Shown one piece after another: positions 7,350 to 64,000 of a DNA stretch of 64,000 bases. The stretch's first letter is position 1. Every line of letters begins with the position of its first letter. Where the stretch lies: positions 17,191 through 81,190 of the forward strand of contig JACGUG010000001.1 of NCBI GenBank assembly GCA_024256285.1. The letters are read 5' to 3'. The DNA comes from an archaeon (GTDB taxonomy: Archaea; Thermoproteota; Nitrososphaeria; Nitrososphaerales; JACAEJ01). Position numbers and translations under genes: made by a program. The notes beneath the pieces are model-generated. The model searched no databases. It had not been told where the DNA came from and saw only the letters and a list, made by a program, of their open reading frames with translations.

Positions 7350-7356
7350 AAATTTA

Positions 7357-7707: not shown

Positions 7708-7720
7708 TTTTACTATCAGA

Positions 7721-47487: not shown

Positions 47488-47665
47488 CCTTTACAATCCT
47501 TAGATTAAAGATTAATGCTTTTTAGACCTTTATATGCTTCCTCAAAAATCTCTAAATATTTCTTTTGCACGAGTTGCTCGCCTTTATGTAAAACGTATCT
47601 GTATCGTTTTCTTTAGCTGAAAAATTGGCTGTCCTTATATTAACCTACGATGGGGGGAAGGCACA

Positions 47666-48151: not shown

Positions 48152-48243
48152 TTTCTTGGTATAACCTCTACTCTTATTTTGGATAAAAAACTTTTCTTTT
48201 TGAAAGATTCTGTCACTTGTAAGGATCTCAAAATTAGTTGAAC

Positions 48244-49065: not shown

Positions 49066-50192
49066 TTCTTAACCTCTTGTATGATTTTTTCAAGTCGATC
49101 TATAATATTATCCCAACTGAACAATTCGACACGCTCTAAAGACCGTTTGCTATATTCTTCCAATAATTTATGATCTTCAAATAGATTGACGATTGCTTTA
49201 CGTAATGCCTCATCATCCTTTGGAGGAACCAGTATACCGGCATCACCTAGCACGTAAGGATTTCCCCCCACATTAGTGGCAATAATAGGTAGACCAACGG
49301 CCATCGCTTCGAGCAAGGAGTTTGAAAAGCCCTCTGAAAGGCTGGGTAAGACAAAACATGACGCCTCTTTAAGAAAGTTAGGCACAGCATCATTCGGCAC
49401 TGCCCCAGCAAATGTAGTGTTGGACTCCGCTATCGCTCTGGCAGTGTATTTCTGCTCTCCCCACCCACCTACAACGACCAAATTGACATTCTTGATCTGG
49501 TTCACTGCTGAAATAAGATAGAGTAATCCTTTTGCTGGACGGGCACCTCCTACATAGATTAAAGTCTTGTTATTCAATTTCGTTCGGAACTTACTATAAC
49601 TTGCCAAGTCGATACCATTGCCAAGGATCTTTATCTTCCCTTTCTCGCAACCCCTCTTTACAAGGGTTTCAAGCATGGCGGGAGTCTGTGCTAAAACTAC
49701 GTCGGCTCGAAAAACTAACTTTAATAAGTTTCTTGTGATCAGACCGATCAAATCTTTTCTTGATGGAGTGACGAAGACATCACTGCCACGCCCCCACGCT
49801 ATAACTGGGACTCTTTTTAGCCGTGTTATCATCAAGAGAGATCTAACGACCATGGCGGAAAGGCAGATTGGCATCAATGTGAAACTGAGAATAGCGTCAG
49901 GGGGCTTGCGCCAAGAGAGTAAGAATGACTTCAAAGTCTGGCTCAAGAAGCGTCCTCCCATAGTCGGCAGTCTCTTAACTCGATAGATCTTCAGCTTGCC
50001 ATCGTGAAGTTCTTCATAGGATTTCATCTCTCCTATCTGAGTAATTACGTCTGATCTGAAGCCTGCTGAATATCTTGCTACAAGTGTAACTTCGTGCCCA
50101 CGTTGGGCTAGATTTTTGGCTATCTTAAAGCTTGCTAGCTCTGTTCCTCCCACCACAGGATACGTATAGCCGACAAGTATCAGTATTTTCAA
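49062..50192 (-). CDS. glycosyltransferase family 4 (GT-B)
   Basis: GGTELASFKIAKNLAQRGHEVTLV and the EX7E region PSLSEGFSNSLLEAMAVGLPIIATNVGG. Confidence 0.85.
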   Translation of the reverse strand: MKILILVGYTYPVVGGTELASFKIAKNLAQRGHEVTLVARYSAGFRSDVITQIGEMKSYEELHDGKLKIYRVKRLPTMGGRFLSQTLKSFLLSWRKPPDAILSFTLMPICLSAMVVRSLLMITRLKRVPVIAWGRGSDVFVTPSRKDLIGLITRNLLKLVFRADVVLAQTPAMLETLVKRGCEKGKIKILGNGIDLASYSKFRTKLNNKTLIYVGGARPAKGLLYLISAVNQIKNVNLVVVGGWGEQKYTARAIAESNTTFAGAVPNDAVPNFLKEASCFVLPSLSEGFSNSLLEAMAVGLPIIATNVGGNPYVLGDAGILVPPKDDEALRKAIVNLFEDHKLLEEYSKRSLERVELFSWDNIIDRLEKIIQEVKK

Positions 50193-50368
50193 ATGAACCT
50201 CTGTTCTTTAAAGAGCCAATACTTTTAAACTTCATTGATGGGCAAAATGAAATACCTAAATTAAGTGAGGTGACTTAGAAAGTGGAGCCGATCATTTTGT
50301 TGGATAACGCTTCTAAGCAAGTGTTAATAGTTTGAATTGGGGGATCGATAAAAAGCAGGTTATAAAAA

Positions 50369-51574
50369 ATGAAAAGGAGATCGTATGTAGATCTTATCCA
50401 TCATATATTAAGAATTACTCCGCTTTTTCACAAACGTTTGCTTGGTAAAATCCCTGATTACCTAAAGTCTAAGGAATCTCTCCGATTGTATTTAATATTG
50501 TGCATATCTATAGTTGAAATCATCCTCAATTTTGGTCGAATCTTCCCAGACTCATCTCAATATATGGATTTTTCTCTTTTTCTTCTCGGAAGGCAAGGAA
50601 CTGTTAGTCAGATGTATCAGATAGTCATGAGGCCCATGGTTCCATTACTAGCCACTCCCCTAATCCTGATCTTCAACAACGTTAACTTTAGTTTCGGATT
50701 GGTCAGCAGTTTCTTTTGGATAGGTGGAGCGATCGTCGCTTATAAACTCGGAAAGTTGTTGCTCAAAGATGACGATCTTGCCACCTTGGTTGCCTTGGTG
50801 TACGTTACGGCTCCAGCTATGTTATGGCATGGGGCAGCTGTCTTGACAGATTCTGCAGCATACTTCTTCATTGGACTGGCAATCTATCTTACTTTCATGA
50901 GAGAACAACAGATGAACGTCTCATCAAAGAGGTATTTTTTCGATGCATTTATTGTAAGTTTAGGGGTCTTATTTAAGGAAGTAGTAGTCTTTGCGTTGTT
51001 GTTCATGCTTTACAGGCGGTTTGTGAAAAGGAAGGGTTTCAAAGAGACTTTGACAGCGATCGTTGTAGTTGGGTTCTGTGGAGTTCTGTATCTGAGTTTG
51101 CTTGGTTTTGGACTTGACATATTTATTTTTAAGTACTCAGTTGCATACGATACTCGATCTTGGGGAGTTTATCCTTTCTTTGTCAGTTTTGTACGAGCTT
51201 ATGTTCTTTCTTACCCGGAGCGAATTCAGGAATGGATTTCAGCAATGGATCTGTTCAGAATTGGCAGACTTCTGGTCTTTGCTGTGGCCACTCCATTAGG
51301 GCTATACTTTAGTAAACGAAGAAAGGACCTATTCATGTGTACCCTGTTTCTTTTTCCTACAGCGATCATCTGGCCGGTTATGGTTGAAAGATTTTCCTTT
51401 TGTCTATGGCCCGTTATCGTCCTCGGCATGGTAAACGGTATGGACTTTATTTTGTCAAAACTGACCTTTACTAGAGTTTTTCCATATAACTACAGAATTT
51501 TTATATATTTATACGTATTCGTATGTGCTATCGTAAATACCTATTATCCGATAACTGTAAAGTTGGAGTGGTAA
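50369..51574 (+). CDS. polytopic membrane protein (GT-C / glycan polymerase-like candidate)
   Basis: 401 aa with about 10 TM segments, divergent from the GT4 operon. Confidence 0.5.
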   Translation: MKRRSYVDLIHHILRITPLFHKRLLGKIPDYLKSKESLRLYLILCISIVEIILNFGRIFPDSSQYMDFSLFLLGRQGTVSQMYQIVMRPMVPLLATPLILIFNNVNFSFGLVSSFFWIGGAIVAYKLGKLLLKDDDLATLVALVYVTAPAMLWHGAAVLTDSAAYFFIGLAIYLTFMREQQMNVSSKRYFFDAFIVSLGVLFKEVVVFALLFMLYRRFVKRKGFKETLTAIVVVGFCGVLYLSLLGFGLDIFIFKYSVAYDTRSWGVYPFFVSFVRAYVLSYPERIQEWISAMDLFRIGRLLVFAVATPLGLYFSKRRKDLFMCTLFLFPTAIIWPVMVERFSFCLWPVIVLGMVNGMDFILSKLTFTRVFPYNYRIFIYLYVFVCAIVNTYYPITVKLEW

Positions 51575-51630
51575 AGATAAACTATATGAAGAATTTCTCC
51601 CTCGATTTTACTGAAATTAGACAGATCTTA

Positions 51631-52635
51631 TCAGGGTTGTTCTTTTAGGTTGTCGATGCTTGATAACTTTTTGGAACGCCATAGTTCAGGATAGGTCCCG
51701 GCCTTCATTATTACTCGCTTTGTCATAAACGCCAACCCTTTGCTTGCACCTACTATCTCCTCTGTCGACATCAAGGCTTCTCCTATCGCTACCAACTCCC
51801 CCTTTAAAGTGTACATGCAGACGGTACCCCCTCCCACTATATCGGGCGATATCTGCAATATTCCAGGTACTGCCAATTGCGCACCATGGCAGATGGCATC
51901 GACGGCCGAGTCACGCATTACCGTTGCCTTGATAGAGGATGTGGCAAACTCTATGGGTTTTACCAACTGCCTTATCTTATCTTCCTTCCCTTCCTCCTTC
52001 CATCCATGAACTCCGTCCAATAGATCATGAAGCCTGACCAACCCGTCTTCTTCAGTCAGATCGCTGACCCTCGTCCTTCTCAACTCTACCATAGTGGCGC
52101 CCGAGCCCAAGACTTCCCCCATATCGTAGATGAGCTTTCTCACATAAGTTCCAGCTTGACAGAGAACCCTTAAGAGAATCAGATTGCCACTCTGCTCGAT
52201 CAAATCCAGATCGTAGATTGTACGAGTCCTAGTGGCTCTCTTGACGGAAGATCTTTGGGGAGGGCGTTGATAAATTTCTCCAGTAAATTCAGAGAGAACT
52301 TTCTTCAGTTTAGTTTCGTTCATGGGGTTGTGAATTCTCGCAATGGTATAATACTCCTTAGGTCCCAATAGGAGGAGAGAGAGAGCTTTTGTCCCTTCGC
52401 CCAACCCTATGGGGAGCAGACCCGTTACAAGGGGGTCTAAAGTCCCGCTGTGCCCTGCCTTTTTCACTCCCAGCATCCTTCGCACCCATGCTACAACCTC
52501 ATGGCTAGTCGGCCCTGGAGGCTTGTCCAAAAGAGCGACCCCGTAGTCCAAGAGAGCCTCCATAGGGCGTTTGTAGGGATCATGACCATAACTTTCATCT
52601 GTTGAGTCTTCATCTATAGTGATCAAACCTTGCAA
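51631..52635 (-). CDS. cbf5: H/ACA RNP pseudouridine synthase Cbf5
   Basis: KAGHSGTLDPLVTGLLPIGLGEGTK catalytic motif and a C-terminal PUA domain. TTG start. Confidence 0.9.
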   Translation of the reverse strand: MQGLITIDEDSTDESYGHDPYKRPMEALLDYGVALLDKPPGPTSHEVVAWVRRMLGVKKAGHSGTLDPLVTGLLPIGLGEGTKALSLLLLGPKEYYTIARIHNPMNETKLKKVLSEFTGEIYQRPPQRSSVKRATRTRTIYDLDLIEQSGNLILLRVLCQAGTYVRKLIYDMGEVLGSGATMVELRRTRVSDLTEEDGLVRLHDLLDGVHGWKEEGKEDKIRQLVKPIEFATSSIKATVMRDSAVDAICHGAQLAVPGILQISPDIVGGGTVCMYTLKGELVAIGEALMSTEEIVGASKGLAFMTKRVIMKAGTYPELWRSKKLSSIDNLKEQP

Positions 52636-52706
52636 AGATCATCTCCTCGATTTACTTGCTTTATTTAAACTAAACTAAACTAAAAACCCTTTGTGGTACA
52701 TACCTT

Positions 52707-53306
52707 CTAACCCGCTTTATGTAATTTTTTGATGTAAAGATCGATAACTTTGGAGACTACATCGTAGACTTCGTCGGGGCCGAATCTATCTGTATTCAGT
52801 ATGAGATCGAAGGGAGAAAGATCTCTGCCAAAATCGAATCCATAGAGGCTCTTATAGATCGATCTAGTCATTTCATCCTTCTCTTGGATTATCCCCATGA
52901 TACTCTGAATCTCTATCCGATCCCTTTTGGCTGCCCTTTCTGCTCTCTTCTCTAAGGATACCTTTAGCCAGATCTTGAGAGCCTCTCCTTTTAAGAGCCA
53001 AGGCATAGTCCAGCTATCGAGCACAACATTCCCTCTATCTGCCATTTCGAGCAACTTATCATCAACTCTTTTATCGAATCTTTCGTCCTTCTTTCTTTCT
53101 TTTAAGAACCTTAACCCTTCTTCACTCTCCCACCATCCATCACCCTTTGGCTTGTATCCTTTTTCTACTGCCAATTGCTTTAAGGCATCTCCACCTGAAA
53201 AGTAGCTCAGACCGTATCTTTCAGCGATTCTTTTGGCTAAAGTGCTCTTTCCAGAGCCTGCCATCCCTGAGATGCAGATTACAAGACCCCTCTCCTTTTT
53301 TATCAT
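52707..53306 (-). CDS. cmk: cytidylate kinase (archaeal type)
   Basis: P-loop ISGMAGSGKST; conserved position after adk-DUF106. Confidence 0.85.
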   Translation of the reverse strand: MIKKERGLVICISGMAGSGKSTLAKRIAERYGLSYFSGGDALKQLAVEKGYKPKGDGWWESEEGLRFLKERKKDERFDKRVDDKLLEMADRGNVVLDSWTMPWLLKGEALKIWLKVSLEKRAERAAKRDRIEIQSIMGIIQEKDEMTRSIYKSLYGFDFGRDLSPFDLILNTDRFGPDEVYDVVSKVIDLYIKKLHKAG

Positions 53307-53348
53307 TTATCACAATTGCTTTCAGAGAATTTATTAAGCATTCTTTAT

Positions 53349-53843
53349 TTAGGTGGGGCTAGTTTTAAGAAGCTTCATTACGATTGCGCTGAAGGCGAAA
53401 GAAGAGATCAAATACCACCAGAAAAGGCTGAAACCGTAACCTCCTTCGATCGGTACTCCGATGTTTATTATGAGGAGGTCTATAGGCATGGGAGATATGG
53501 CTACAATGGCATCATACCCGCCAAGGAAAGTGGCAAGAAGATAGTAGACTGCTATGAAAGGAACCCAAAAGAGAAGCATAGGCTTCATCCTCTCCTTCGT
53601 TACTTTCATCTGTAACTCCATCATCTGCTTCTCCCTCTTCCTCAGTTTTCTCTCTTTAGCCTTATCTTTTGTGAGTGTGGCTTGCTTCAGTTCGTCTCTG
53701 AAAGCCTTAACTTCAGCATTTATTCTTCTTGCTCGATCTACATCTGTAAATAGACGGGTAACCACGTTAGAGGTGAGGCTCAGCATTAGAGCGACCGCTG
53801 TTACTAACAAAGTAGAGATGGGTATAGCAGTAGGGTCCACCAT
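53349..53843 (-). CDS. DUF106 / EMC3-Oxa1-like membrane insertase homologue
   Basis: TM, then a basic coiled coil (KAKERKLRKREKQMMELQMKV), then TM; conserved position between adk and cmk. Confidence 0.75.
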   Translation of the reverse strand: MVDPTAIPISTLLVTAVALMLSLTSNVVTRLFTDVDRARRINAEVKAFRDELKQATLTKDKAKERKLRKREKQMMELQMKVTKERMKPMLLFWVPFIAVYYLLATFLGGYDAIVAISPMPIDLLIINIGVPIEGGYGFSLFWWYLISSFAFSAIVMKLLKTSPT

Positions 53844-54431
53844 TCATATCACACCAAGGGCTTTCAAGATCTGGTTGGCAGCTTCTTCTATATGATTCTC
53901 CTTATTCATCACTATGAGTAGGGGAGCCCCACTTATTATCGCTGAAGTGCTCAACATACTTCTTTCCATCTCTATCTCTCTTGCAATGGCTTCTTCTTCA
54001 GCAAGGTCCCTACACCTTCCAGAATCCCTTCTGCGCCTTGAAATTATCTCATGGGGGAGAGCCTCTATCAAGATCAGATTGCTCGGAGACAGGGCTCTTA
54101 AGACTTCAAAAGGAAGGCCGGGCCAATAACCTTCCTTAGTGTTTATCATAAGGTGAGTATCTACGAATAAAAAATCAGCTTTCATCATTGCTATCTTCTC
54201 AGCCGCTTCTATCTGGAGCTTACGCTGTTCGTCTACTGGCAACTTCCTCATCTCATCTCTATGCTTGATGCCCAGTTTTTTCGCCTCCTCAAACATCAAT
54301 GTGCCAAATACAACAGATTCTAAAGTAAACTTCTTTTTCTTGATCTGTTCCACTACCCTGTTGACCACTGTCGTCTTGCCGACCCCAGGAATGCCAATTA
54401 TCACAGCTCGTTTAGTAGCCAAGAGCAACAC
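53844..54431 (-). CDS. adkA: adenylate kinase (archaeal AdkA)
   Basis: P-loop GIPGVGKTT; downstream of secY. Confidence 0.85.
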   Translation of the reverse strand: MLLLATKRAVIIGIPGVGKTTVVNRVVEQIKKKKFTLESVVFGTLMFEEAKKLGIKHRDEMRKLPVDEQRKLQIEAAEKIAMMKADFLFVDTHLMINTKEGYWPGLPFEVLRALSPSNLILIEALPHEIISRRRRDSGRCRDLAEEEAIAREIEMERSMLSTSAIISGAPLLIVMNKENHIEEAANQILKALGVI

Positions 54432-54500
54432 CTATCGAAGTAAGCTTAAATGTGTATCTTTATTTATTTATTCGATTAAAAATCTTTTCTCTGGCCTTAT

Positions 54501-55940
54501 TTACTTTCTTTCAAATATTCCCGCAAGCCTCGGCATCATCGTCTCGAGCTGCTCCTTCATCAATATCTGGTAATACTGCATGATTATACCTATCATTAAC
54601 AGTATCCCCGTGCCGGAGCCAAAGACGCCCAAGATATCAGATAAAGAAGCAATGAGGCCGATTACGATGCCGCCTAATATGGTGATGGGGGGTATGTACC
54701 TTGCCAGAATGGTTCCTACAGAAGCTTCTGCCGTCCTAAAGCCCGGTACATGAACATCTGCATCGAGCAAGCTTTTTGCTACGTCCTTAGGTGCTAGACC
54801 ACCTATCGCCACCCAAAGTTTGGAGAAGAGCGTTACAATCAAGACCATGAAAAAGACGTAGGAGAGGGCCCTTAAAGGGTCTGCCATAGCAGCGCTCAAG
54901 CCTTGTATCGGCGACATATAGTACACCAAACCCCCTGTTGGATATATTATATTATCTGGCCCGTTATATATCCCCGTCCCTAGCCAGTTGAGCCATATAC
55001 TGGTGTTCGTTGGATTGAAACTGGTCCAGATGAATTGTGAAATAAATACCAGATCTGTTAGCAATACTGAAGCGAAGATCACTGGAACGACCGATACGTA
55101 GAGCAACTTGATGGGATAGACACCAGAGAAGCCTCTATATTTCGAGGATGAGATAGGAATCTCCACCCTAACCCCTTCGATGTAAATTAGGAAGAGGATG
55201 ACCGCCAGTGTCATGAGGAAACCTACCAAGCTCGGAAGAGCACCTTCCCTCACGATAGCCTCATAAGGAGCACCTCTGATCAAGGCATTGATAAGGAAAG
55301 GTATGAAGCCAAAGGGAACGATCTTTGGAACTTCTGAGCTTCCTATGTTTACAGTCAGAGGGTTGAAGATACTCCACATTATATGCTGTGCCACCCCTGC
55401 CATGATGAACAAGCTTATACCGCTACCAATGCCCCAGCCTTTCTGAACGAGTTCGTCCAAGAGCATCACGATCACGCTGGCGACGAAAAGTTGCATCACG
55501 ATTATGACCATCGTTGTGAAAGATAGACTGCCATAGATACCTGCTATTATATAACCTAAGGACTGCACAAGTATGACGACCATCGTCAAGAGTTTCGTAG
55601 TAGATGTGAATAGCGCCCTATCTTCATCCTTTTTAAAATCCAGCTTTATTATCTCTGCACCCTTTAGGAGTTGCATGACCAATCCTGCAGTCACTATGGG
55701 ACCTATGCCGAACTCCATAAGAGTACCTTGGTTGGATGCGAAGATGATTCTAGAGTAAGCCAACGGGTCTGTCCCACCCGTCGTAATCCCATATAGGGGG
55801 GTTTCGGCCATAATGAGGTAAACAGCTAGAGCGATGGCAGTCCAGATTAGCTTCATCGTTAGAGAGAGTTTCCTTCGAGGTGTAGGGACCTCGGGCATGA
55901 TAGTCGAGATGCCTCTTAAAAAGCCAGAAAGACTGCTCAT
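54501..55940 (-). CDS. secY: protein translocase subunit SecY
   Basis: 479 aa with 10 TM segments, and the plug/hinge motif GIGPIVTAGLVMQLL. Confidence 0.95.
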   Translation of the reverse strand: MSSLSGFLRGISTIMPEVPTPRRKLSLTMKLIWTAIALAVYLIMAETPLYGITTGGTDPLAYSRIIFASNQGTLMEFGIGPIVTAGLVMQLLKGAEIIKLDFKKDEDRALFTSTTKLLTMVVILVQSLGYIIAGIYGSLSFTTMVIIVMQLFVASVIVMLLDELVQKGWGIGSGISLFIMAGVAQHIMWSIFNPLTVNIGSSEVPKIVPFGFIPFLINALIRGAPYEAIVREGALPSLVGFLMTLAVILFLIYIEGVRVEIPISSSKYRGFSGVYPIKLLYVSVVPVIFASVLLTDLVFISQFIWTSFNPTNTSIWLNWLGTGIYNGPDNIIYPTGGLVYYMSPIQGLSAAMADPLRALSYVFFMVLIVTLFSKLWVAIGGLAPKDVAKSLLDADVHVPGFRTAEASVGTILARYIPPITILGGIVIGLIASLSDILGVFGSGTGILLMIGIIMQYYQILMKEQLETMMPRLAGIFERK

Positions 55941-55945
55941 CCTAT

Positions 55946-56389
55946 TTACCTTGTAGTTATTGATCCTCCAGCTTCCTCTATTTTATCCTTTGCGCTCTTT
56001 GTGAACGATCTAGCAACGATATGATAACGGCCTTTTATTTCACCATTTCCAAGGAGCTGATCATAGCCTAACTTGATGAGATCGATCAAGGCCTCATCTT
56101 CCTTTTGTTCTATCTTACCTTCCTTCAAGAGTTTATCGTATATCTCATCTAGTTGACCAATATTGATCCAGCTCTTGATAGGTGCCCTCTTGGGAGGTTT
56201 GAAACCAGCCTTGCCGAAGTGATCTGGTGCGTACTTCACCGTCCAAGTCCACTTATGCTTCTTGAGACCAGCCTTTCCTTTTCCTCCTCTGCCGCCACTC
56301 TTCCTATGCTGACCTACTCGCCCATAACCACAAGTCCTTGAACCCCTCAATTTCCTTGTCTTTCTTAACCGAGTAGGCATGTTCAACAC
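55946..56389 (-). CDS. rpl15: 50S ribosomal protein L15 (uL15)
   Basis: RKTRKLRGSRTCGYGRVGQHRKSGGRGGKG. Confidence 0.9.
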   Translation of the reverse strand: MLNMPTRLRKTRKLRGSRTCGYGRVGQHRKSGGRGGKGKAGLKKHKWTWTVKYAPDHFGKAGFKPPKRAPIKSWINIGQLDEIYDKLLKEGKIEQKEDEALIDLIKLGYDQLLGNGEIKGRYHIVARSFTKSAKDKIEEAGGSITTR

Positions 56390-56438
56390 CTCTTGTTAAA
56401 CAATAATTCACCAAATTAAAAAGTTAATCATCTTGAAG

Positions 56439-56906
56439 TTAGATCATCTTCCCAACAATGGAGATAAGTTCAGGATTTTCGCCCAGAATTCCTCCTTGAG
56501 TGTACAGACGCCTAGTTGAGCGCTTGAAACCCCCTCTAGGTGGCGATAGGGCAAAAAAAGAGTTCATCCCCTCGATCTCCTTCAAAGCAGTCTTTCCTAC
56601 ATCTATGGATCTTGCCATATCGCTAAAGCCTTTAAACCCCCATCCCTTGATATCCTTTAAAGTCAAAGGCTTCCATCCCCCCTTCCGCCCCCTCTTTTTT
56701 ATCAATTTTGAGATGAGAGATGCATCCACGGGGCACCATGCAACGCATTCCTTAGAGGAGATCAGCATTCCTCTGTAGTCTGGTGTATCCAGAACGATCG
56801 TTGCCCTAAATCTCTTTGTCAGATGAAGTTGATCAAGAGTCCTCCTTACAGGCTCTCGAACATTGATAGTTCCACGAAGCCTGACAACCAAAAGGTTCTT
56901 GCTCAA
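56439..56906 (-). CDS. rpl30: 50S ribosomal protein L30 (uL30)
   Basis: LLVVRLRGTINVREPVRRTLDQLHLTKRF. Confidence 0.9.
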   Translation of the reverse strand: MSKNLLVVRLRGTINVREPVRRTLDQLHLTKRFRATIVLDTPDYRGMLISSKECVAWCPVDASLISKLIKKRGRKGGWKPLTLKDIKGWGFKGFSDMARSIDVGKTALKEIEGMNSFFALSPPRGGFKRSTRRLYTQGGILGENPELISIVGKMI

Positions 56907-56910
56907 AGCT

Positions 56911-57549
56911 TCACCTTAACCCAACATTCAGACTATGAATTTTCTTCAAGGCATCGTATACTGCATATGCTACAGATGATATGGTACTTGTAGAGCCGTA
57001 GGTTCTTGTCCAAGCGTCCTTTATCCCAGCAAGAGATAGTAAAATCCTGATCTTTTCTCCAGCCACAAGTCCAAGCCCCTTTGGGCCGGGGATTATGACT
57101 ATTTTGACACTCCCACATTTGCCTGTAGTCTTTAAGGGGATCGAATGGAGGCCCATGCATCTACACTCCCAACTACCACAACCCAGTTTTACGGGAATTA
57201 TGTTCAAGAGAGAGTCGTTGGTTGCCTTCTCTATAGCTACTCTCATCTGGTTGGCCTTCCCTCTACCCACGCCAAACCAACCATCTTCATTCCCTACAGC
57301 CACTATGGCGATAAATCTAGTTTGCTCACCTGCATCTGTCTGCCTTTGAACTATCCCCGCCCCAATCACATTCGTTTTTAGGTCTGGCAAGAGCGTCTTG
57401 ACGATATCTGGCTCCTTGATCTTCATACCACTCTCGAATATCTCTTCTAATGAAGTGATCTTCCCTGTTGCTACAAGAGACCCCAATCTAGTTCTGGGCG
57501 TCCAAGGTTCTTGTATTATTTGTCTACTTTCTCTACGTTGTTTCCTCAT
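56911..57549 (-). CDS. rps5: 30S ribosomal protein S5 (uS5)
   Basis: ...FIAIVAVGNEDGWFGVGRGKA...IIPGPKGLGLVAG. Confidence 0.95.
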   Translation of the reverse strand: MRKQRRESRQIIQEPWTPRTRLGSLVATGKITSLEEIFESGMKIKEPDIVKTLLPDLKTNVIGAGIVQRQTDAGEQTRFIAIVAVGNEDGWFGVGRGKANQMRVAIEKATNDSLLNIIPVKLGCGSWECRCMGLHSIPLKTTGKCGSVKIVIIPGPKGLGLVAGEKIRILLSLAGIKDAWTRTYGSTSTISSVAYAVYDALKKIHSLNVGLR

Positions 57550-58139
57550 GCTTTCTTCACCTCAAAGCTTTCAATTATTTTTTTACGAATCTCTTCGAAG
57601 TGCTCTAGAAGAGACTCTGGGTTAAGACCTTTGTCGATCATGTCTGAAAACCTTTCCTTATAAAGAGTCTTATCACTTTCCGATAGATGCTTGGCATAGT
57701 TCATGATATGCTTCCCTTTGAGCCTATCTTCCGATGGTAAGGCCTCTTCGTCTATAGGGATCGATACACCTGCATCCAATAGCCCTTTAGCCACAGCCGT
57801 GATACGAGAGTCATATATGAAATGTCTCAAACCTATGTATAAAACTGCCCTATCCACCTTGCCCTTCGCTTTGAGGCCAGTCAATAGACCTGTAAGGTAT
57901 GCTGCTGGAATGTTCTTTCTTGAAGCTAACCATCCAAACTTTATCAGCTCTCTTGAATGGGCTGATGCTAAAGATAGATCGCCTTCTTTTTGAGGCGATG
58001 ATATCTGAACCAGAATGTTCTTTCTACTTATAAAGATAGAAACGAAAGGTAATTTGCTTATGATTGCAGCTTTCCTCTTTCTATAATTTGTCTTTCCCTC
58101 TCGCCTTCTGCGCATGATCGATACATAGCGACTACACAC
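57546..58139 (-). CDS. rpl18: 50S ribosomal protein L18 (uL18)
   Basis: RRRREGKTNYRKR...NIPAAYLTGLL. Confidence 0.9.
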   Translation of the reverse strand: MCSRYVSIMRRRREGKTNYRKRKAAIISKLPFVSIFISRKNILVQISSPQKEGDLSLASAHSRELIKFGWLASRKNIPAAYLTGLLTGLKAKGKVDRAVLYIGLRHFIYDSRITAVAKGLLDAGVSIPIDEEALPSEDRLKGKHIMNYAKHLSESDKTLYKERFSDMIDKGLNPESLLEHFEEIRKKIIESFEVKKA

Positions 58140-58143
58140 GATC

Positions 58144-58587
58144 TCATCTCCTCCGACTCATTAAACTTATCTGCTCCTCAAGATGTCTGACCGACTTGAT
58201 CTGACCACCTTTTATCTGTAGATAAAGCTTGTCGAATACTTCGCCTGTTATATCTCCTCTCTCTCTGGCTTTCTTCAAACGATTTCTTATAGCCCGTACT
58301 TTTGTAACCCATGATCTTTTCTTTGGGGTTCTAGCGCCAGAAGCGCCTTTCTTTGAGCCACTACCTCTTCCACGCTTCTTCTTTGAAGCTCTTCTCGTTC
58401 TGGTACGACCACGAGAAATGCCTTTGACAGGCTCAACCCAGATCGCACCTTCCCTGATGAGGGCTCTTATATCGTCCTTGGTAATGGCATCCACTACACG
58501 CTCGAGATTTCCAGGGTCTATCCTAACCTTGTTCATCCCTACCTTGAGGACCTTTGCAGCCATCACCTTCTTATTACTCAAGTTCAA
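58144..58587 (-). CDS. rpl19e: 50S ribosomal protein L19e
   Basis: KKVMAAKVLKVGMNKVRIDP...ISRGRTRTRR. TTG start. Confidence 0.9.
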   Translation of the reverse strand: MNLSNKKVMAAKVLKVGMNKVRIDPGNLERVVDAITKDDIRALIREGAIWVEPVKGISRGRTRTRRASKKKRGRGSGSKKGASGARTPKKRSWVTKVRAIRNRLKKARERGDITGEVFDKLYLQIKGGQIKSVRHLEEQISLMSRRR

Positions 58588-58608
58588 CTTTATCGATTCT
58601 CTTCTAGC

Positions 58609-58615
58609 AATTTAT
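58609..58615 (-). promoter_or_regulatory. TATA-like box for a re-initiated L19e-...-cmk transcript
   Basis: The minus strand reads ATAAATT 22-28 nt upstream of the rpl19e TTG start. The spacing suits a leaderless archaeal promoter. Confidence 0.3.
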
Positions 58616-58667
58616 CGAGCCAAGGCCCGCTCTACTTTCCCAATAGTTACACTCCCTTAAATCTTTC

Positions 58668-58693
58668 TTAAGATAGACTTTTAAGATAGACTT
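58668..58693. repeat. perfect 13-bp tandem duplication (ttaagatagactt x2)
   Basis: Read directly at the left edge of the island. Confidence 0.85.
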
Positions 58694-58807
58694 GGTCTGG
58701 GTTGGAATTTCTACCCACCGTCTTTTTTAAACTTTCGATCTTAAAAGTATGGATTTATGTTTTATCAGCGAGTCAGAACTCCAAAATCACTATTTTATCG
58801 ACATCTG

Positions 58808-59066
58808 TTAACTTACGGCGCTTGTCCCCGTTCGTATTATCGGGATTATATGAAGGTATATTGGCGAAGTCTCCAAGACTCTTTTTTGGCTTATGTCGAA
58901 TACCTTCCCTATCTCTTCCTGAGTGCGCCCTTCTGAAGATAATTCGTCATCTGATGACGAATTGACGAATCCATTTTTTGCCCATGGTTATGCGCTCTAC
59001 TTCACGATCACGCTCAGATCCACGTTTGAGATCCTTACCGGTACGAATTTTGGCGCTAGAAGACAA
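58808..59066 (-). pseudogene. fragmented helix-turn-helix gene (resolvase/transposase-type HTH) split over two frames
   Basis: Frame 1 (59066-58947): MSSSAKIRTGKDLKRGSERDREVERITMGKKWIRQFVIR*. Frame 2 (58987-58808): ...SSSDDELSSEGRTQEEIGKVFDISQKRVLETS...*. The EGRTQEEIGKVFDISQKRV part is a classic HTH. Confidence 0.35.
58941..58963. repeat. 23-bp perfect palindrome AATTCGTCATC-T-GATGACGAATT
   Basis: Read directly. It is followed by a third GACGAAT copy at 58964-58970 and lies at the frame break of the HTH remnant. Confidence 0.85.
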
Positions 59067-59134
59067 GACTAGCGAATGGGAAGATGCAAACTAAATACAT
59101 ATTAAACAACACAATAATCCCCTTTTGACTTGAC

Positions 59135-59443
59135 TTGAAGTTCTTGGTAAAATGGCGTATAAAACCGATTTCTCCAGAAACGATGAAGGCAGTACTAGAT
59201 TTGGTGCCAGATCAGATCAAATACGCAAAAGCTCTTAAAGAAAAGGGCAAAATCGTTGCTGAATATATAATTGGGAAAAATGAAGGATTTGGAATCCTTG
59301 ATGTAGAATCACAAGAAGAACTCAATGAGATCTTGGCAAAGACTCCATCAAGTTCGATAGTAAGCCATGAGGTGATTCCACTCATAGATTTCGAACAATC
59401 CCTAGAGGTCTGGAAAGAACTTATAGAAAAGGCTGTAAAATAG
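59135..59443 (+). CDS. muconolactone isomerase-like / DUF3303-like ferredoxin-fold protein
   Basis: MKFLVKWRIKP...KEKGKIVAEYIIGKNEGFGILDVESQEELNEILAKTP...HEVIPL parallels muconolactone delta-isomerase (..G.w..lwri.G....ifDVes.dELh.lL..lPl.p....v.PL). TTG start. Confidence 0.55.
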   Translation: MKFLVKWRIKPISPETMKAVLDLVPDQIKYAKALKEKGKIVAEYIIGKNEGFGILDVESQEELNEILAKTPSSSIVSHEVIPLIDFEQSLEVWKELIEKAVK

Positions 59444-59472
59444 CTCGTTTTTTGGGAATATTATCCGATAAT

Positions 59473-59766
59473 TCATGAGAGCTTTTCTACGAAGGCAAGA
59501 AACTCCTCAAGGGCAGATACAGGATCGACGGTCACTTTTCCATATTTAGAGAGAGCCACCATTATCTTACGAAGTTCTACATGTGGATCTTCCACATTCA
59601 CTACAAAGAATGCATACCTTCTCACAGTGGAGAAATATATGGCTTCGGGCTTGGCCTGTTCTACAAGTTCTCTGATATCTCTCTTCACCTCTTCAGGGTT
59701 CTCAAACAGTTTTGCCTCAACTTCAGTGGGCGTCTCTAAACCTATTACATACTTCAACTTGTCCAC
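59473..59766 (-). CDS. hypothetical alpha/beta protein
   Basis: 97-aa ORF convergent with the previous gene. No family recognised. Confidence 0.45.
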   Translation of the reverse strand: MDKLKYVIGLETPTEVEAKLFENPEEVKRDIRELVEQAKPEAIYFSTVRRYAFFVVNVEDPHVELRKIMVALSKYGKVTVDPVSALEEFLAFVEKLS

Positions 59767-59958
59767 CTCTATAATCGATAATAATTTTGAGTATTAATTT
59801 TTTCTTGCTAAATCTATTCCAATTAGAATATTTATGTTTTGGCAGTAGCAGATCACAGGTCCTTATCATGCCTGAATATCCACTTCTTTATCAGACCTTC
59901 AAAGCCCCTCATTATCAGAAGTGCCGAAGACAAGGCGAGCAGGTCTGGAAAATTGCAA

Positions 59959-60045
59959 TTATGACATCGCCCCGCCGACGAGCGTTATGACGGTTAGGCC
60001 GATGAGGATGCCAAGCCAGAACTCTTGGATGAGTTGTTTCTTCAT
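59959..60045 (-). CDS. possible 28-aa hydrophobic peptide
   Basis: Manual translation: MKKQLIQEFWLGILIGLTVITLVGGAMS*, a single TM helix. The ATG overlaps the end of the upstream small basic ORF. Confidence 0.25.
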   Translation of the reverse strand: MKKQLIQEFWLGILIGLTVITLVGGAMS

Positions 60046-60197
60046 CCAGCATTTACGGTCTCACCTTCTCCCAGGCTTCCTGCAAAGCTTCTTCTCTGCT
60101 CTTGACCAGCTTGCTGGCACGCTTCATGATCCTTGAGAGCTTCCCTGGTTTTCTTCCTAGGTCTACCCTTCTTCTTTGTCTTCCTTTTCTTCGGCAT
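60042..60197 (-). CDS. possible small basic AT-hook-like protein (51 aa as read; alternative C-terminus in another frame)
   Basis: MPKKRKTKKKGRPRKKTREALKDHEACQQ... has a GRP AT-hook core. From 60127 a second frame reads MKRASKLVKSREEALQEAWEKVRP*, which looks more protein-like, so a 1-nt indel is possible. Confidence 0.3.
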   Translation of the reverse strand: MPKKRKTKKKGRPRKKTREALKDHEACQQAGQEQRRSFAGSLGEGETVNAG

Positions 60198-60561
60198 CTA
60201 ACCTCTAAGTATAAAAGTGCAGAAAATCACCTTACTTCATGATTGAGCACTAACCATCAAAGATGCATTTTTTATTGATGAGTGGAAAGGAGTGCCCTGA
60301 CTTCTGAGGGCTGGGTGGAACCGGATATGAAAGCTCCAAAGATTATCCTCGCTCTTCCCCACTGGCGTGTTGGTTTTCGGTGACTTGGCGCCGGGCGCCC
60401 TACAGAGATCGATAAAGAGCAGGTGTTGGTTACTTCGGGAAGCGCATTAATACTTATGAACAATTCGTACTAAAGATCATGTACATATAACCATTCTAGA
60501 ACCATTCTATAAGTAATATGTCTATATATTTAGACTCTTCCTTTACATTTGAGGTTAGAGC

Positions 60562-60870
60562 ATGAATAGAACAAGTATTGATCTGATAGCTGTCGATTAT
60601 CCCGCCCCGTTCTCCACATCACTAGCTTTGGAGATACCAACAGTAGATCCAGAAGAGAAGGTTGTGGAGCCCACAACAGAAAAAAAGGGAATAACAACTA
60701 CGAGTATGCTTCTGTATCAACAGGCTAGTATCAGAGTAGAAAGAGAAGATGATGATGAACCACCTCAATTCTATTCAGTAAGATGGTGGATTAGATGCCA
60801 ATCTTCTGAACTTCACCGTCCTATCGACTGGTGCCACAACAGGAAGTTAGCCATACCAAATTATGATTGA
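60562..60870 (+). CDS. hypothetical protein
   Basis: 102-aa ORF in the island. No family recognised. Confidence 0.35.
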   Translation: MNRTSIDLIAVDYPAPFSTSLALEIPTVDPEEKVVEPTTEKKGITTTSMLLYQQASIRVEREDDDEPPQFYSVRWWIRCQSSELHRPIDWCHNRKLAIPNYD

Positions 60871-60984
60871 CTCGAAAAAAGATATCGCTGTCGACAAAAG
60901 GCTCGGGAGACGGTGAAGAATTGATGGGTGAAGGCGAAAAGAAGTAAACTCAACCATCTCCTTATTTTTGGATCGAAAGAGATG

Positions 60985-61014
60985 TTAGTTACTCCAAGAA
61001 GCGTTTAACTTAAC
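60985..61014. repeat. sequence related to the right end of the 20734-21175 element
   Basis: ttagttactcc-N9-ttaacttaac here versus ttagttactac-N12-ttaacttaac at 21139-21170. Confidence 0.4.
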
Positions 61015-61038
61015 TTAATTTACGGGAGGCGAGGCAAA

Positions 61039-61773
61039 ATGTTTAACTTGACTGCCCCTCGAGCTCTTCTTATGGTAATTGTAAGTTTAAGCGAGGTGCT
61101 CCTCATCGTCGATCTGGTTCTGTTGGTCGTGACAATCTACCTCCTACGCACCAGTACCAAGGAGGCGAGAGGAAGGTCACATCTAATAGACCAACTCATA
61201 CAGGCCACGAGGACCTTCAGTAGGGCCGAGTATTTCACCGAGGTTCAAGAGGCGGTTGGTGAGTCCACCAGCTACATCTACGCAACCGTAACTGGAACTC
61301 CCCCAAAGGAAGATGAGCATGAGACCATCGAGAGGCTTCTTAGACAGTTCGCTAGGGCCTCGAAGGCAGGTGTCAGGCTGAGATTTATCCTTCCAAAGGA
61401 CCCGGGGCGTCTTATGATGGGGCACAGGTATAAGAGCGGAGGAAGTGATGTCATGTACAACTCTTCTATTCTGGTTAGCGACCTGAGGTATATGGTAGTG
61501 GACGGTCGTGTGACCGTCCTAGGCTTTCCAGAAAGGAGCGGAGCGGAGGAGCCTACTCGCAAGGGCTACAAGATATACTCGGAGGGAGTCTCTCTCATGT
61601 TCAAGGAGAGGTTCGAGAGCCTCTGGGAGAGTCCTTCGTCGATAGACTATGACTCGTATCTTGAGAATACTATGAAAGAGGCGGCCGCTAACACGCCTGG
61701 GATTTCGGATGAGCTCCTAGCTTCCCTTTTAAGGCTACCCATAGAAGAGATTAGAAGGGGCAAATGTCGATAA
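61039..61773 (+). CDS. membrane-anchored protein with degenerate PLD/TrmB-C-like domain
   Basis: N-terminal TM helix, then ...GVRLRFILP... and SDLRYMVVDGRVTVLGF, where the HxKxxxxD motif appears as DxRxxxxD. GC looks noticeably higher than the flanks. Confidence 0.5.
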   Translation: MFNLTAPRALLMVIVSLSEVLLIVDLVLLVVTIYLLRTSTKEARGRSHLIDQLIQATRTFSRAEYFTEVQEAVGESTSYIYATVTGTPPKEDEHETIERLLRQFARASKAGVRLRFILPKDPGRLMMGHRYKSGGSDVMYNSSILVSDLRYMVVDGRVTVLGFPERSGAEEPTRKGYKIYSEGVSLMFKERFESLWESPSSIDYDSYLENTMKEAAANTPGISDELLASLLRLPIEEIRRGKCR

Positions 61774-61811
61774 ATCCTGTATAATAATGTGTCAAGCGTA
61801 GAATTTGATAA

Positions 61812-62017
61812 ATGAAGAAGGTTGAACAGATCGAGTACTATAACTTCAACGAATACTAGACTGTCCAGAGTACAAATGCTCTAAATGTGGTGAGACGATT
61901 CCAGCAAACAACAAAAGGATTCCGATTAACAAGGACATTAGGTCATCGAATAACTCCCCCGCAACTATGAACGCTACTACGAACGCGCACCATATTCAAA
62001 GGGGCAAGACTCTATAA
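61812..62017 (+). pseudogene. small Zn-ribbon-like gene split by a frame change
   Basis: Frame 1: MKKVEQIEYYNFNEY-TAG(61857). The overlapping frame, open from 61844, reads LQRILDCPEYKCSKCGETIPANNKRIPINKD...GKTL*. Confidence 0.3.
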
Positions 62018-62079
62018 TTCATCGGTAAAGGAAGACATAATTTCCGGGGTTTCGATCTCAACTGGTTCGGGTGAACTGG

Positions 62080-62340
62080 TTACTTCTTGGCTGATTGGTT
62101 CATGATCCTTTGATTCCTGACTGAAGAAGAACTATCAGTTGCTTCTGAAGGTTGGCTGTTCAATAGCGAAATGCCTTCTTGATTTACCGATAGGGATAGC
62201 CTCTGCTTCCCAACCAGTTCCTTGATCGACTCGGCGTACTTGGGCTTGTCCTTGATCCCCTGTTCTTTGAACAGCTGGTTGTAGCCCGTATCACCTTTAG
62301 CGTTCAACACTCTGAGAATGTCAAGATCAAACTTGTCCAT
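62080..62340 (-). CDS. winged-helix DNA-binding protein
   Basis: MDKFDLDILRVLNAKGDTGYNQLFKEQGI... ATG 62340 is preferred over the upstream TTG of the track ORF. Confidence 0.5.
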   Translation of the reverse strand: MDKFDLDILRVLNAKGDTGYNQLFKEQGIKDKPKYAESIKELVGKQRLSLSVNQEGISLLNSQPSEATDSSSSVRNQRIMNQSAKK

Positions 62341-62673
62341 GTTAATTCCATAAGAAAAACCAACTGGTTGGTAGGGCTGAAAAGGCAACTAGCAGAAGGG
62401 GGCGAATACCATAGATTTATTTTAATTGAATGGCAAATAGGAGTGCCCACCGAGATTCGAGTCTATTTTGTCATAAAAATGGACTCAATTAAAATAACAA
62501 TAGTTTGGAGTGGGGATAGATAAATTAAATAAATATTTAGAAAATTTTCTCTATAATCTCTGAATTTGTGAAATTAAGCCGAATATCTTTAATAAAAAAT
62601 CATGGCGGAATGACGTTATATGCCTCCCGCCAGATCTCTTCGACATCTCACAAGTATGCTTCCCATCAGAAGC

Positions 62674-62870
62674 TTACTCAGACTTCTCTTCCTTTTCTAC
62701 GGTTTCGACTATCTGGCCGTTGGCATATCTGTTTCCTACTTGTACGATCTTGATTCTTGTTCGCTGTCCAGCTTTGGCTTGGGGGACGAAGATTACAAAT
62801 CCTTCAACTCTCGCTATCCCGTCGCCACGTCTGCTGAGCCACTACCGCGTCCGTAACTCGTATTTTTCAA
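62674..62870 (-). pseudogene. TRAM-domain gene, N-terminally truncated and frame-shifted
   Basis: Open frame 62841-62677: WLSRRGDGIARVEGFVIFVPQAKAGQRTRIKIVQVGNRYANGQIVETVEKEEKSE*, the canonical TRAM core GDGIARVEGFVIFVP. It is preceded by an in-frame TAG (62844-62842). The TTG start with an AAGGAG upstream (62870) is in another frame (MKNTSYGRGSGSADVATG*). The usual first beta-strands (PV..G.eYev.I) are missing. Confidence 0.6.
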
Positions 62871-62936
62871 CTCCTTGCGTTTAGTTACGCTGAATAAGAT
62901 TAGAAACCCTCATATATATCTATATCCTTGTAGGCA

Positions 62937-63047
62937 TGGCGCATATGGGTTCATTAGAGAACGTCTGGTCTAGGATGGTGCAGCCCATAAGAGGGGTGAG
63001 GTTTGAACCCACGAAGCCTGCACGCTTATGTAGGAGGTGGGGCGCCA
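62937..63047. ncRNA. candidate structured RNA / tRNA-like fragment
   Basis: GC-rich, ORF-free. TGGCGC (62937-42) pairs with GCGCCA (63042-47), and TGGGTTCA (62946-53) pairs with TGAACCCA (63004-11). On the minus strand, GTGGG-TTCAAAC-CTCAC (63012-62996) looks like a tRNA T-arm, but no acceptor or anticodon arm could be built. Confidence 0.3.
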
Positions 63048-63227
63048 GACCTTTGGTTTATGTAGTGATGAAATCCTTCAAACACCTTCTCATCAGTCGA
63101 CAATGAAGATGTGTTATCCAAAAACTATTCATCACTTTCATCACATTCTCACACCAATTTGGTTCTTTAAATAATATTATTTATTTAATATAACTGCCTG
63201 TAGAGCGACCTAAATAATGCTTTCTTT

Positions 63228-63776
63228 TTATTCTGGAGTTTCTGTTGCTTTGGTCTTCCTAACGCCTCTTGGGTTCAAGACTTTTATGCCCAGCTCTTTT
63301 GCCCTCTCTATCAATTCAGCCCTCTTTTTTGCCCCTAAAGTTGAAGCCAGTCTTGCTGCATCTTTCTTAGGATCGAGCCCCTCGAGTTCACCTATGTTAT
63401 GAACCAGTACATCTCTGTAACCTGAGGGGTGAATGCCCCTCGTTATCTTCGGTCCCCGATAACCTACTTTCACTACTTTGGGCCAGCCTTTCACTCTGCG
63501 GCGCATCTTGCTGTCTATGCCTTTGGGCTTCCTCCAAGCCCTATCTATTCTCTTGTACCTCCAAGATTCCTGCCTCATGAACTTGGGGCGCTTGTCATCT
63601 ATGCTATCTCTTACCCTCAGAAGTTCCTCCATACTCTTTTCCTTCTTTTTTCTAGCCCTAGAAGCTTTTGTTTTAACTCCCTTTTTCTCTTTAGCTTTCG
63701 TTCTAGAAGTTTTAACTTTCTTCTTCTTTGTAATTTTTGCTTTAGATGTAGTTTCTTCTGCCATATTATCGATCAA
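63228..63776 (-). CDS. rpl32e: 50S ribosomal protein L32e with Lys-rich N-terminal extension
   Basis: ...[15 protein letters not shown]...[17 protein letters not shown]...GYR. Confidence 0.9.
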
Positions 63777-64000
63777 CCCTTCTGCTTTTCATATATATAT
63801 ATCCCATCTAGGAAGACTCTTTGATCTTTCTTCTTCACTTTGGTTGCCTGTTCTATATTTGCCGCTGTCTGACCGACATCCTCCAACAAGACGCCTTTGA
63901 CGATGACATCGTCCCCCTCAACCATCACTTTGCAGTCGCCTACTATCTTCGCTATACGTGGAGACCTCTCCCCGTAGAAGTTCTCAATGATCACGTTTTT
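63773..64000 (-). CDS. rpl6: 50S ribosomal protein L6 (uL6), C-terminal part (gene continues past the right edge)
   Basis: ...[46 protein letters not shown] is an L6 C-terminus. It overlaps the rpl32e start by 4 nt. Confidence 0.85.

Follow-up and report, generated by a model that had tools for sequence, protein, structure and literature searches.

Inserted DNA between rpl32e and rpl19e in the ribosomal protein gene cluster of an uncultivated archaeon

In archaea, the L6-L32e-L19e-L18 block of ribosomal protein genes is among the most stable of gene orders. Within positions 17,191-81,190 of contig JACGUG010000001.1 (a 64-kb stretch of 64,000 nt, analysed as a whole and called the window below, with positions counted along it), the genes rpl32e and rpl19e of an archaeon stand 4.6 kb apart, and the interval between them is an insertion and not an ancestral arrangement. 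The two genes are only 55-240 nt apart in nine of nine relatives from the same order, and none of these relatives carries the extra DNA. The account towards which we lean, at little better than even confidence, is that the inserted DNA is a young, lineage-specific islet of accessory genes, about 4.5 kb in length, which would have become inserted where two transcription units adjoin, without site-specific recombination, and would since have been partly maintained while partly decaying.

The insertion seen against related genomes

Both borders of the interval are formed by ribosomal protein genes of the minus strand. The last gene before the insert is rpl32e (63228-63776; Pfam Ribosomal_L32e, 4e-43), which follows the L6 C-terminus (63773-63994) and whose TAA stop (63228-63230) directly adjoins the inserted DNA; an exact look-up of the 182-aa L32e protein returned no record. 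The first gene past the insert is rpl19e (58144-58587; Pfam Ribosomal_L19e, 8e-19 for the N-terminal and 9e-25 for the C-terminal part), beyond which the minus strand carries, in intact order, L18, S5, L30, L15, SecY, adenylate kinase, an EMC3/TMCO1-like membrane protein and cytidylate kinase, with identities backed by the Pfam matches precomputed for an identical Logan contig (L006). The archaeal spc-like order of ribosomal protein genes, L6-L32e-L19e-L18-S5-L30-L15-SecY-Adk, is therefore kept on both sides of the insert, strand included. An earlier reading made from the letters of this DNA (the sequence-only reading) had described just such a separation of about 4.6 kb at preserved order and strand, and the Pfam matches, together with the short gaps in the relatives, bear it out.

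The relatives comprise three genomes obtained from a scan of species-representative genomes, namely Ca. Methylarchaceae archaeon HK01M (L001), L002 and L003, plus six metagenome contigs (L022-L027). The closest of them, HK01M, is identical to the window at 93.6% of nucleotides over 50280-58680 and at 92.3% over 63225-64000, its L19e protein is 96% identical in amino acids, and both flanks are collinear with the window on the same strand. Between its two blocks aligned to the window by blastn, HK01M has just 13 nt of sequence of its own, and its entire L32e-L19e gap measures 110 nt. The L19e proteins of the other eight relatives are 72-85% identical to that of the window (85% for L023, and 72-83% for L002, L003, L022 and L024-L027). 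At none of the nine loci was there any nucleotide or translated similarity to the islet beyond the spacer itself, so that the comparison of synteny with close genomes, which the sequence-only reading had proposed as the check on its claim, favours insertion over an ancestral layout. Since several of the relatives are outgroups to the pair formed by the window and HK01M, a single gain in the lineage of the window is the parsimonious solution, and the age of that gain is bounded by the synonymous divergence (dS) of the flanking genes from those of HK01M, which is 0.17-0.22. HK01M has been assigned to 'Ca. Methanoinsularis' within the order 'Ca. Methylarchaeales' of the class Nitrososphaeria (PMC9478090); judging from the level of identity, the organism behind the window is most likely another species of 'Ca. 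Methanoinsularis'.

The gene order at this site had been called almost invariant. This is correct within the order, where the adjacency of L32e and L19e is constant (9/9 loci), but two of seven more distant archaeal loci that were sampled have an interrupted cluster, with other genes between L32e and L19e or between L19e and L18. In one of them (L028), an ORF (open reading frame) of 373 aa occupies a 1.2-kb L32e-L19e gap (6800-8000), and in the other (L032), two ORFs of 177 and 170 aa lie in a 1.25-kb L19e-L18 gap (1450-2700). Interruption of the ribosomal protein cluster is thus uncommon, yet it has precedent.

Edges of the insert and the ancestral spacer

Based on blastn break points against HK01M and on junction alignments, the inserted DNA, which is absent from all relatives, extends over 58711-63227 (~4517 bp). 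Its right edge is the L32e TAA stop. Its left edge falls at 58710/58711, give or take a few T residues, and may lie as far in as ~58733 by comparison with L023, in which case approximately 22 nt more would be ancestral; this similarity is not significant by itself. The ancestral L32e-L19e spacer (58588-58710, minus strand) has been kept whole on the L19e side, where it aligns to the 110-nt spacer of HK01M. A perfect 13-bp tandem duplication, TTAAGATAGACTT x2, located at 58668-58693 with Tandem Repeats Finder, had been listed among the features of the island; the duplication exists, but it sits within the ancestral spacer, 17 nt from the edge of the insert and outside the inserted DNA, and HK01M has one copy only.

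The spacer of L023 holds an extra AT-rich stretch of ~130 nt (6456-6612) without significant similarity to the islet, which indicates that the length of this spacer varies in the clade. The idea that the longer, 235-nt spacer of L023 is homologous to the ends of the islet was discarded, as 27/300 and 134/300 shuffled sequences scored equally well.

Two promoter-like boxes lie on the minus strand within the retained spacer. The proximal one, a TATA-like box, AATTTATC (GATAAATT), is at 58609-58616, 22-29 nt upstream of L19e, and is found in HK01M too. The distal one, GAAAGATTTAAGGGAGTG, is at 58650-58667 and occurs in six genomes (the window, HK01M, L023, L002, L022 and L003). It belongs to a 47-nt block (58620-58667) that the window has in common with HK01M (L001 ~9915-9965) and L023 (6614-6660) at 91% identity; between the window and L023, this block upstream of rpl19e, 91% identical, is better conserved than the adjoining coding DNA. 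In L003, the GAAAGATTTAAGGGAGTG motif lies ~28 nt ahead of the L19e start codon, a spacing that would fit a TFB recognition element (BRE) and TATA box driving a nearly leaderless mRNA, and the relatives with short spacers (L024-L027) have A/T-rich boxes where their spacers begin. We regard the distal block as a candidate BRE/TATA element plus leader. A structured leader upstream of L19e was also considered, and was dropped when RNAalifold gave no pairs.

Judged by their conservation, these boxes would have promoter function, and even ahead of the insertion event L19e was very probably the first gene of a transcription unit of its own, or at least was served by an internal promoter. The sequence-only reading had rightly pointed to a TATA-like box upstream of rpl19e, but the box is not new, since HK01M has it as well. 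It had further held that the insertion must uncouple the transcription of the downstream genes, with a new promoter implied. That does not follow, as the complete ancestral spacer, with both of its boxes, stays on the L19e side; the insert landed upstream of a spacer that would already have borne a promoter, so that no new one is required.

Assembly support and the TRAM gene

Two independent Logan contigs cross the two outer junctions of the insert. One of them, L006 (10,081 bp), matches 52569-62649 with a single mismatch (99.99% identity) and crosses the left junction, while the other, L034 (run SRR24270827), is 100% identical to 62837-64000 and crosses the right junction. A chimeric join at 58.6 or 63.2 kb, which had been raised as a point to check, is accordingly unlikely. 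In addition, two National Center for Biotechnology Information (NCBI) records give the same proteins with consecutive accessions from L18 through the islet's ORF F.

The two contigs both end, without overlapping, at a gene for a TRAM-domain RNA chaperone (62677-62880, minus strand; Pfam TRAM, 7e-9). In the window this gene is disabled by an 88-bp deletion at 62836/62837: its frame holds an in-frame TAG and lacks a start codon, and the fragment scores 61.9 bits (3.5e-17) against a cutoff of 85 for the NCBIfam model NF053605 (PyTRAM). Past position 62837, L034 continues with 88 nt (6515-6602) that the window lacks. When these are restored, the TRAM gene reads through from a TTG or ATG start, and a hybrid protein, its N-terminus taken from L034 and its C-terminus from the window (the assembly of the L034 allele stops short of the 3' end), reaches 86.8 bits against the same cutoff and covers positions 1-54 of 56; an exact look-up of the reconstructed TRAM proteins found no record. 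By this comparison, the window has either a deletion allele or an assembly variant of this gene, the undeleted 5' end of which is present in SRR24270827. What had been listed as a TRAM gene fragment is indeed truncated in the window, but as the result of an 88-bp deletion relative to an allele that keeps its 5' end. Pyrrolysine read-through of the in-frame TAG was weighed and set aside as unnecessary given the deletion; TAG is the stop codon of 6/54 long ORFs in the window. That L006 and L034 both end at the borders of the TRAM domain suggests either an indel polymorphism or a repeated segment.

Between the TRAM gene and the L32e stop, the right end of the insert (62881-63227) is non-coding and 100% identical in L034, with RNA folding z scores of 0.0 and 0.5. 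It probably holds the promoter region of the TRAM gene, as a ATATATAT box lies at ~62908-62920 on the minus strand.

Conserved genes within the insert

At least three genes of the islet, here called A, B and E, are real and conserved. Their ratios of non-synonymous to synonymous substitution (dN/dS) against the nearest homologues are 0.11-0.23, and the family alignments of B and E show that the invariant residues have been retained.

ORF A (59135-59443, plus strand) is intact and corresponds to the muconolactone-isomerase (MIase) family, which has a dimeric alpha+beta barrel. By its Pfam match (MIase, PF02426; 1.1e-10, 41.9 bits vs a cutoff of 26.7, profile positions 1-88 of 90), it counts as a member of that family, while no enzymatic identity is claimed for it, as its score against the TIGR03221 equivalog is 22 bits vs a cutoff of 130.6. 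Its sole homologue among 5.8 billion clusters, 64% identical (dN/dS 0.22), is encoded between polB and asd in HK02M2, a member of the sister genus. A RadA/Rad51-family gene at the other end of the window (967-1971, minus strand) is 58% identical to one that lies 5.5 kb from this homologue in HK02M2 (L033 1-995).

ORF B (59473-59766, minus strand), also intact, encodes a conserved protein with a ferredoxin-like fold. Besides its own entry, its family has 13 homologues of about 90-97 aa, at most 69% identical to it, with 31 invariant columns and the motifs VVNVEDPHVELR and VT(I/V)DPVST.EEF; neither Pfam nor NCBIfam has a model for this family. The homologues come from Bathyarchaeia-type and unbinned contigs, in ordinary chromosomal neighbourhoods where the neighbours differ from genome to genome. 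In an AlphaFold2 (AF2) model of ORF B, with a mean predicted local distance difference test score (pLDDT) of 87.6, the best Protein Data Bank (PDB) match is ClcF, an enzyme of the MIase family (5.6e-4). The expectation of two ferredoxin-fold ORFs was thus sound to the extent that B has a ferredoxin-like fold and A is MIase-like by Pfam, but the two are not paralogues, since hhalign gave them a probability of 3.5%. Nor is B acceptable as the remnant of an HUH (IS200/IS605) transposase: it has H-V-E in place of the HUH motif and belongs to a stand-alone family in chromosomal contexts, and the Foldseek match to IS608 TnpA is weak (E about 1e-3, root-mean-square deviation 6-9 A) and reflects the generic ferredoxin fold.

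ORF E (61039-61773, plus strand) is intact and combines an N-terminal membrane helix with a domain that resembles phospholipase D (PLD). Its family consists of 13 clusters among 5.8 billion and is restricted to archaea of the Nitrososphaeria type. The HK02M2 copy, 81% identical in amino acids, has aspS on one side and a CBS-domain gene on the other; two lineages have copies of 76-80% identity directly upstream of gatCAB (gatC-gatA-gatB), and an 'Aigarchaeota' copy, 63% identical, is found at another locus than gatCAB. This small and clade-restricted gene family has moved repeatedly. The coordinates of ORF E homologues are 578-1656 in L009, 820-1898 in L010 and 997-2190 in L011.

The AF2 model of ORF E (pLDDT 84) shows a long N-terminal helix followed by the PLD-like domain, for which Foldseek returned 7e0m, 1byr, PLD, Nuc, PLD3, Zucchini and the C-domain of TrmBL2, at E values from 2e-9 to 1e-6; the family profile matched PLD in the PDB at 0.009. 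In the family alignment, R150 and D155 are invariant and there is no invariant His or Lys, such that the HxK(x)4D motif is replaced by D-x-R-(x)4-D; the equivalent stretch, as read from the alignment and not from a structural superposition, is S-D-L-R-Y-M-V-V-D. The gene, whose dN/dS is 0.11-0.17, has the helix and the PLD-like fold without the catalytic His, in keeping with the transmembrane, degenerate-PLD protein that had been predicted. On the modelled structure, ORF E has a PLD-like fold but does not count as a demonstrated member of the catalytic PLD/Nuc family.

Remnants, orphans and non-coding DNA

ORFs of at least 100 aa cover 37% of the 4.6-kb interval vs 83% of the window, the lowest coverage anywhere in the window, and genes occur on both strands, which agrees with the low density and mixed strands first noted for it. 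The fragmented HTH (helix-turn-helix), Zn-ribbon and TRAM genes that had been named are all present. The HTH gene remnant (58776-59090, minus strand) is frame-shifted, matches Sigma70_r4 at 4e-4, below the curated cutoff, and is identical in L006. The Zn-ribbon gene fragment (61844-62014, plus strand) has a single CxxC, and a 49-nt match to it (84%) lies ~600 nt upstream of the ORF E homologue in HK02M2.

Within the HTH remnant, and near the left edge as had been reported, is a palindrome of 23 nt with 11-nt arms (58941-58963). Three of the four copies of the 8-mer TGACGAAT in the window fall within 29 nt here (58942-58970), one inverted and two direct, and together they make up the palindrome and an 8-bp tandem repeat. 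The cluster may once have served as a binding site for a protein, or it may have arisen by replication slippage.

Several other features are doubtful as genes. ORF F (62080-62340, minus strand) would encode a small winged-HTH protein, with weak matches to HTH_24 and HTH_AsnC; it is a near-orphan that has just two distant relatives among 1.84 billion representatives, and an exact look-up of its 102-aa form found no record. ORF D (60562-60870, plus strand) is a 102-aa orphan, alone in its 90% cluster and without family matches. At 59959-60197 on the minus strand, the ORF lists give a putative small basic ORF (51 aa, an orphan) followed by a hydrophobic ORF of 28 aa, again without family matches. 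The ORF-free stretch at 60230-60560 has no Rfam match and folding z scores of 0.1 and 0.3 on the two strands, and is most likely decayed or non-coding DNA.

The ORF-free stretches had been described as GC-rich, a description that proved inapt, as they have only 46-48% GC against a mean of 43%, with folding z scores of about 0. The possibility of a hidden RNA gene in them was rejected after null results from Rfam (E up to 1, gathering thresholds) and ARAGORN and z scores of minimum free energy of 0.0-0.5 on both strands. The tRNAs called by ARAGORN at relaxed thresholds are implausible, with introns of 270-800 nt, and a T-arm-like GTGGGTTCAAACCTCAC at ~63000-63016 of the minus strand comes without a matching acceptor or anticodon arm. 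A defence system or toxin-antitoxin pair was likewise dismissed, PADLOC having yielded sub-threshold noise only.

Tests for a foreign or mobile origin

The islet had been called foreign-looking, a view that its composition does not support. Its GC content is 42.9% vs 42.8% for the window, and its tetranucleotide distance is +0.9 sd (standard deviations), rank 15 of 120 windows along the stretch; moreover, the closest or only homologues of A and E lie in housekeeping contexts of the sister genus.

Thaumarchaeal integrated mobile genetic elements (iMGEs) are defined by an integrase; they are usually flanked by direct repeats, their median size is 17 kb, and tRNA genes are frequent targets (Krupovic et al. 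2019, PMC6563490). In that same set, the sites of 15/68 are intergenic and those of 14/68 are at the 3' ends of protein genes (PMC6563490). Searches of all ORFs and stop-to-stop fragments with Pfam, NCBIfam, PHROGs and PADLOC found no integrase, transposase, Cas1 or replication gene, nor a fragment of one; the earlier statement that no integrase or transposase survives thus holds across four libraries of hidden Markov models. There are no direct or inverted repeats of at least 11 nt between the junction zones, no candidate for a target-site duplication at the junction beyond a run of T, and neither a tRNA nor an Rfam match in the islet. A 17-nt direct repeat (58661, 63360) was examined as a pair of att sites and rejected, because both halves are present in HK01M, which is free of the islet, and about one such pair is expected by chance. 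Proteins A, B, E and F gave only two marginal partial matches in IMG/VR, both to A; blastn against phages and plasmids found nothing, and PHROGs nothing significant. Hence, none of the signatures of an element integrated by a tyrosine recombinase that were looked for, i.e. integrase, att repeats, virus or plasmid genes, and deviant composition (the last a supportive rather than a strictly defining criterion), was found in the islet. The same is true of insertion sequences, transposons and casposons, as there is no transposase or Cas1 and no inverted repeat joining the ends.

How the islet may have arisen

On the account towards which we lean, the DNA would have entered after the split from the sister species HK01M (flank dS about 0.2) and lodged between two transcription units, right after the L32e stop and 5' of the promoter-bearing spacer of L19e; its position at such a boundary would be what allowed it to be tolerated. 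It would be DNA of the ordinary archaeal chromosomal type, probably from a related Methylarchaeales or Nitrososphaeria pool, whether by transfer from a relative or by relocation, and we infer that integration most likely took place by recombination of the illegitimate or end-joining type, not by an integrase or transposase. A, B and E, probably F, and in one allele the TRAM chaperone would have been kept since, and decay would be under way in the remnants of the HTH and Zn-ribbon genes, in the stretches free of ORFs and in the TRAM allele with the 88-bp deletion.

Several observations weigh against this account. The genes of the islet are never neighbours elsewhere and no single donor locus was identified; the islet may have been built in several steps. 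Chromosomal counterparts of A and E occur at different loci in HK02M2, of the sister genus. Neither was found in HK01M, HK01B or HK02M1, whose proteins are in the database; their absence from these sister MAGs (metagenome-assembled genomes) could reflect incomplete MAGs. No homologue of ORF B was found in Methylarchaeales, its best matches being at most 69% identical and in Bathyarchaeia-type contigs, and so not all of the DNA of the islet came from the clade. The mechanism is argued from absence: a lack of repeats and integrase is no proof of illegitimate recombination, and the junction microhomology amounts to a run of T. The palindrome, with its cluster of 8-mers, and the remnant of the HTH gene might be what is left of an element. 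Finally, the two halves of the insert are linked through 187 nt (62650-62836) for which the MAG assembly is the only support; a wrong link there would alter the size of the insert, and not the fact that L32e and L19e abut non-ribosomal DNA.

The strongest competitor, which we consider unlikely though deserving of serious weight, is an eroded integrated mobile element, whether cryptic element, provirus or plasmid, that entered site-specifically at the 3' end of rpl32e and has lost its integrase and its att site or sites. The islet does look like a decayed mosaic of orphan and small genes, HTH regulators, a Zn-ribbon and pseudogene debris at low coding density; the palindrome with its three copies of one 8-mer inside the HTH remnant is non-random, A and E are missing from the sister species, and intergenic sites (15/68) and 3' ends of protein genes (14/68) are both used by thaumarchaeal iMGEs (PMC6563490). 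However, no integrase, transposase, Cas1, replication gene or recognizable fragment thereof is left, flanking direct or inverted repeats are missing, the composition is that of the host, and there is no viral, phage or plasmid similarity. Additionally, the homologues of A, B and E are surrounded by housekeeping genes, at separate places and in no case next to mobility genes, and 4.5 kb is far below the 17-kb median of the thaumarchaeal cryptic elements (PMC6563490). Less probable again is a partial assembly artefact, in which the halves at 58.6-62.65 kb and 62.84-63.2 kb would have been misjoined via the TRAM gene, such that the insert is larger or the halves belong to separate loci. Each of the Logan contigs breaks off at an edge of the TRAM domain (L006 at 62649, L034 at ~62828), L034 carries 88 nt missing from the window at exactly that point, and no called gene on record corresponds to the hybrid TRAM protein. 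Yet the MAG contig runs through, the gene order is the same in the two NCBI records, where accessions run consecutively from L18 to F, there is no second TRAM copy in the remaining 59 kb of the window, and breaks of contigs at an indel polymorphism are to be expected in metagenome assemblies; the outer junctions are both confirmed, with flanks collinear with HK01M on the same strand.

That the islet is ancestral and was cleanly deleted in HK01M and the other relatives is barely credible. The presence of the E and A families in the sister genus does make these genes old in the clade, but E and A are at other loci in the relatives, nine of nine relatives lack the islet, several of them outgroups to the pair of the window and HK01M, and because they have the same spacer architecture, many independent and exact deletions would be needed. 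A bolder proposal, to which we assign only a slim chance, is that the islet marks an integrase-independent capture of relatives' chromosomal DNA at promoter-bearing spacers in highly expressed operons, or else cargo recruited for the ribosomal neighbourhood. The cargo that might be cited for recruitment is the TRAM RNA chaperone, on the operon strand and directly downstream of rpl32e, and the degenerate PLD-like membrane protein. If either were true, the islet would be a recent case of the ribosomal superoperon taking in new genes.

Known counterparts and significance

Among known systems, the cryptic integrated elements and iMGEs of thaumarchaea (PMC6563490) resemble the islet in being lineage-specific, rich in ORFans, provided with small HTH and Zn-ribbon genes, and located between genes or at a gene's 3' end in a genome of the class Nitrososphaeria. 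Unlike them (with their integrase, usual direct repeats, 17-kb median and frequent tRNA association), the islet is without integrase, repeats or tRNA, measures 4.5 kb and has native composition. The lineage-specific insertions in the spc-like clusters of L028 and L032 are similar in that non-ribosomal genes lie between otherwise adjacent ribosomal protein genes. Those inserts, in distant archaea, comprise one or two genes, intact, tightly packed and in the same orientation as the operon, whereas the islet is larger and mixed-strand, with two-thirds of its length outside ORFs of at least 100 aa, and is recent, as the sister species at a dS of about 0.2 is without it. The islet also resembles the small flexible genomic islets of prokaryotes, which are strain- or species-specific indels devoid of mobility genes, whose presence varies between close relatives, which contain accessory or hypothetical genes along with pseudogenes, which sit between transcription units, and whose alleles vary within a population (here, the 88-bp TRAM indel). 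Flexible islets are a descriptive category without a defining mechanism, and the islet described here is unusual among them only by its location, within the gene cluster that is the best conserved in the genome.

No new kind of element, system or mechanism is exposed by this insertion, which is real but ordinary-looking. As a presence/absence polymorphism dated to a dS of about 0.2, it indicates where such clusters tolerate extra DNA, i.e. at what would be a pre-existing internal promoter boundary, and it offers a clean natural case of what would be integrase-free gain and decay of DNA in an uncultivated, methanogen-related lineage. Its main practical use is as a caution, in that a 'foreign island' recognized by eye proved to be compositionally native, and one 'gene fragment' proved to be a deletion allele or an assembly variant.

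Elsewhere in the window, positions 44000-51000 have the lowest GC content (39%) and the most deviant tetranucleotide usage, and look more 'foreign' than the islet does. This 44-51 kb region holds a cluster of the surface-glycan type, with an epimerase, a FemAB/GNAT-like protein, a methyltransferase and a GT4/GT1 glycosyltransferase.

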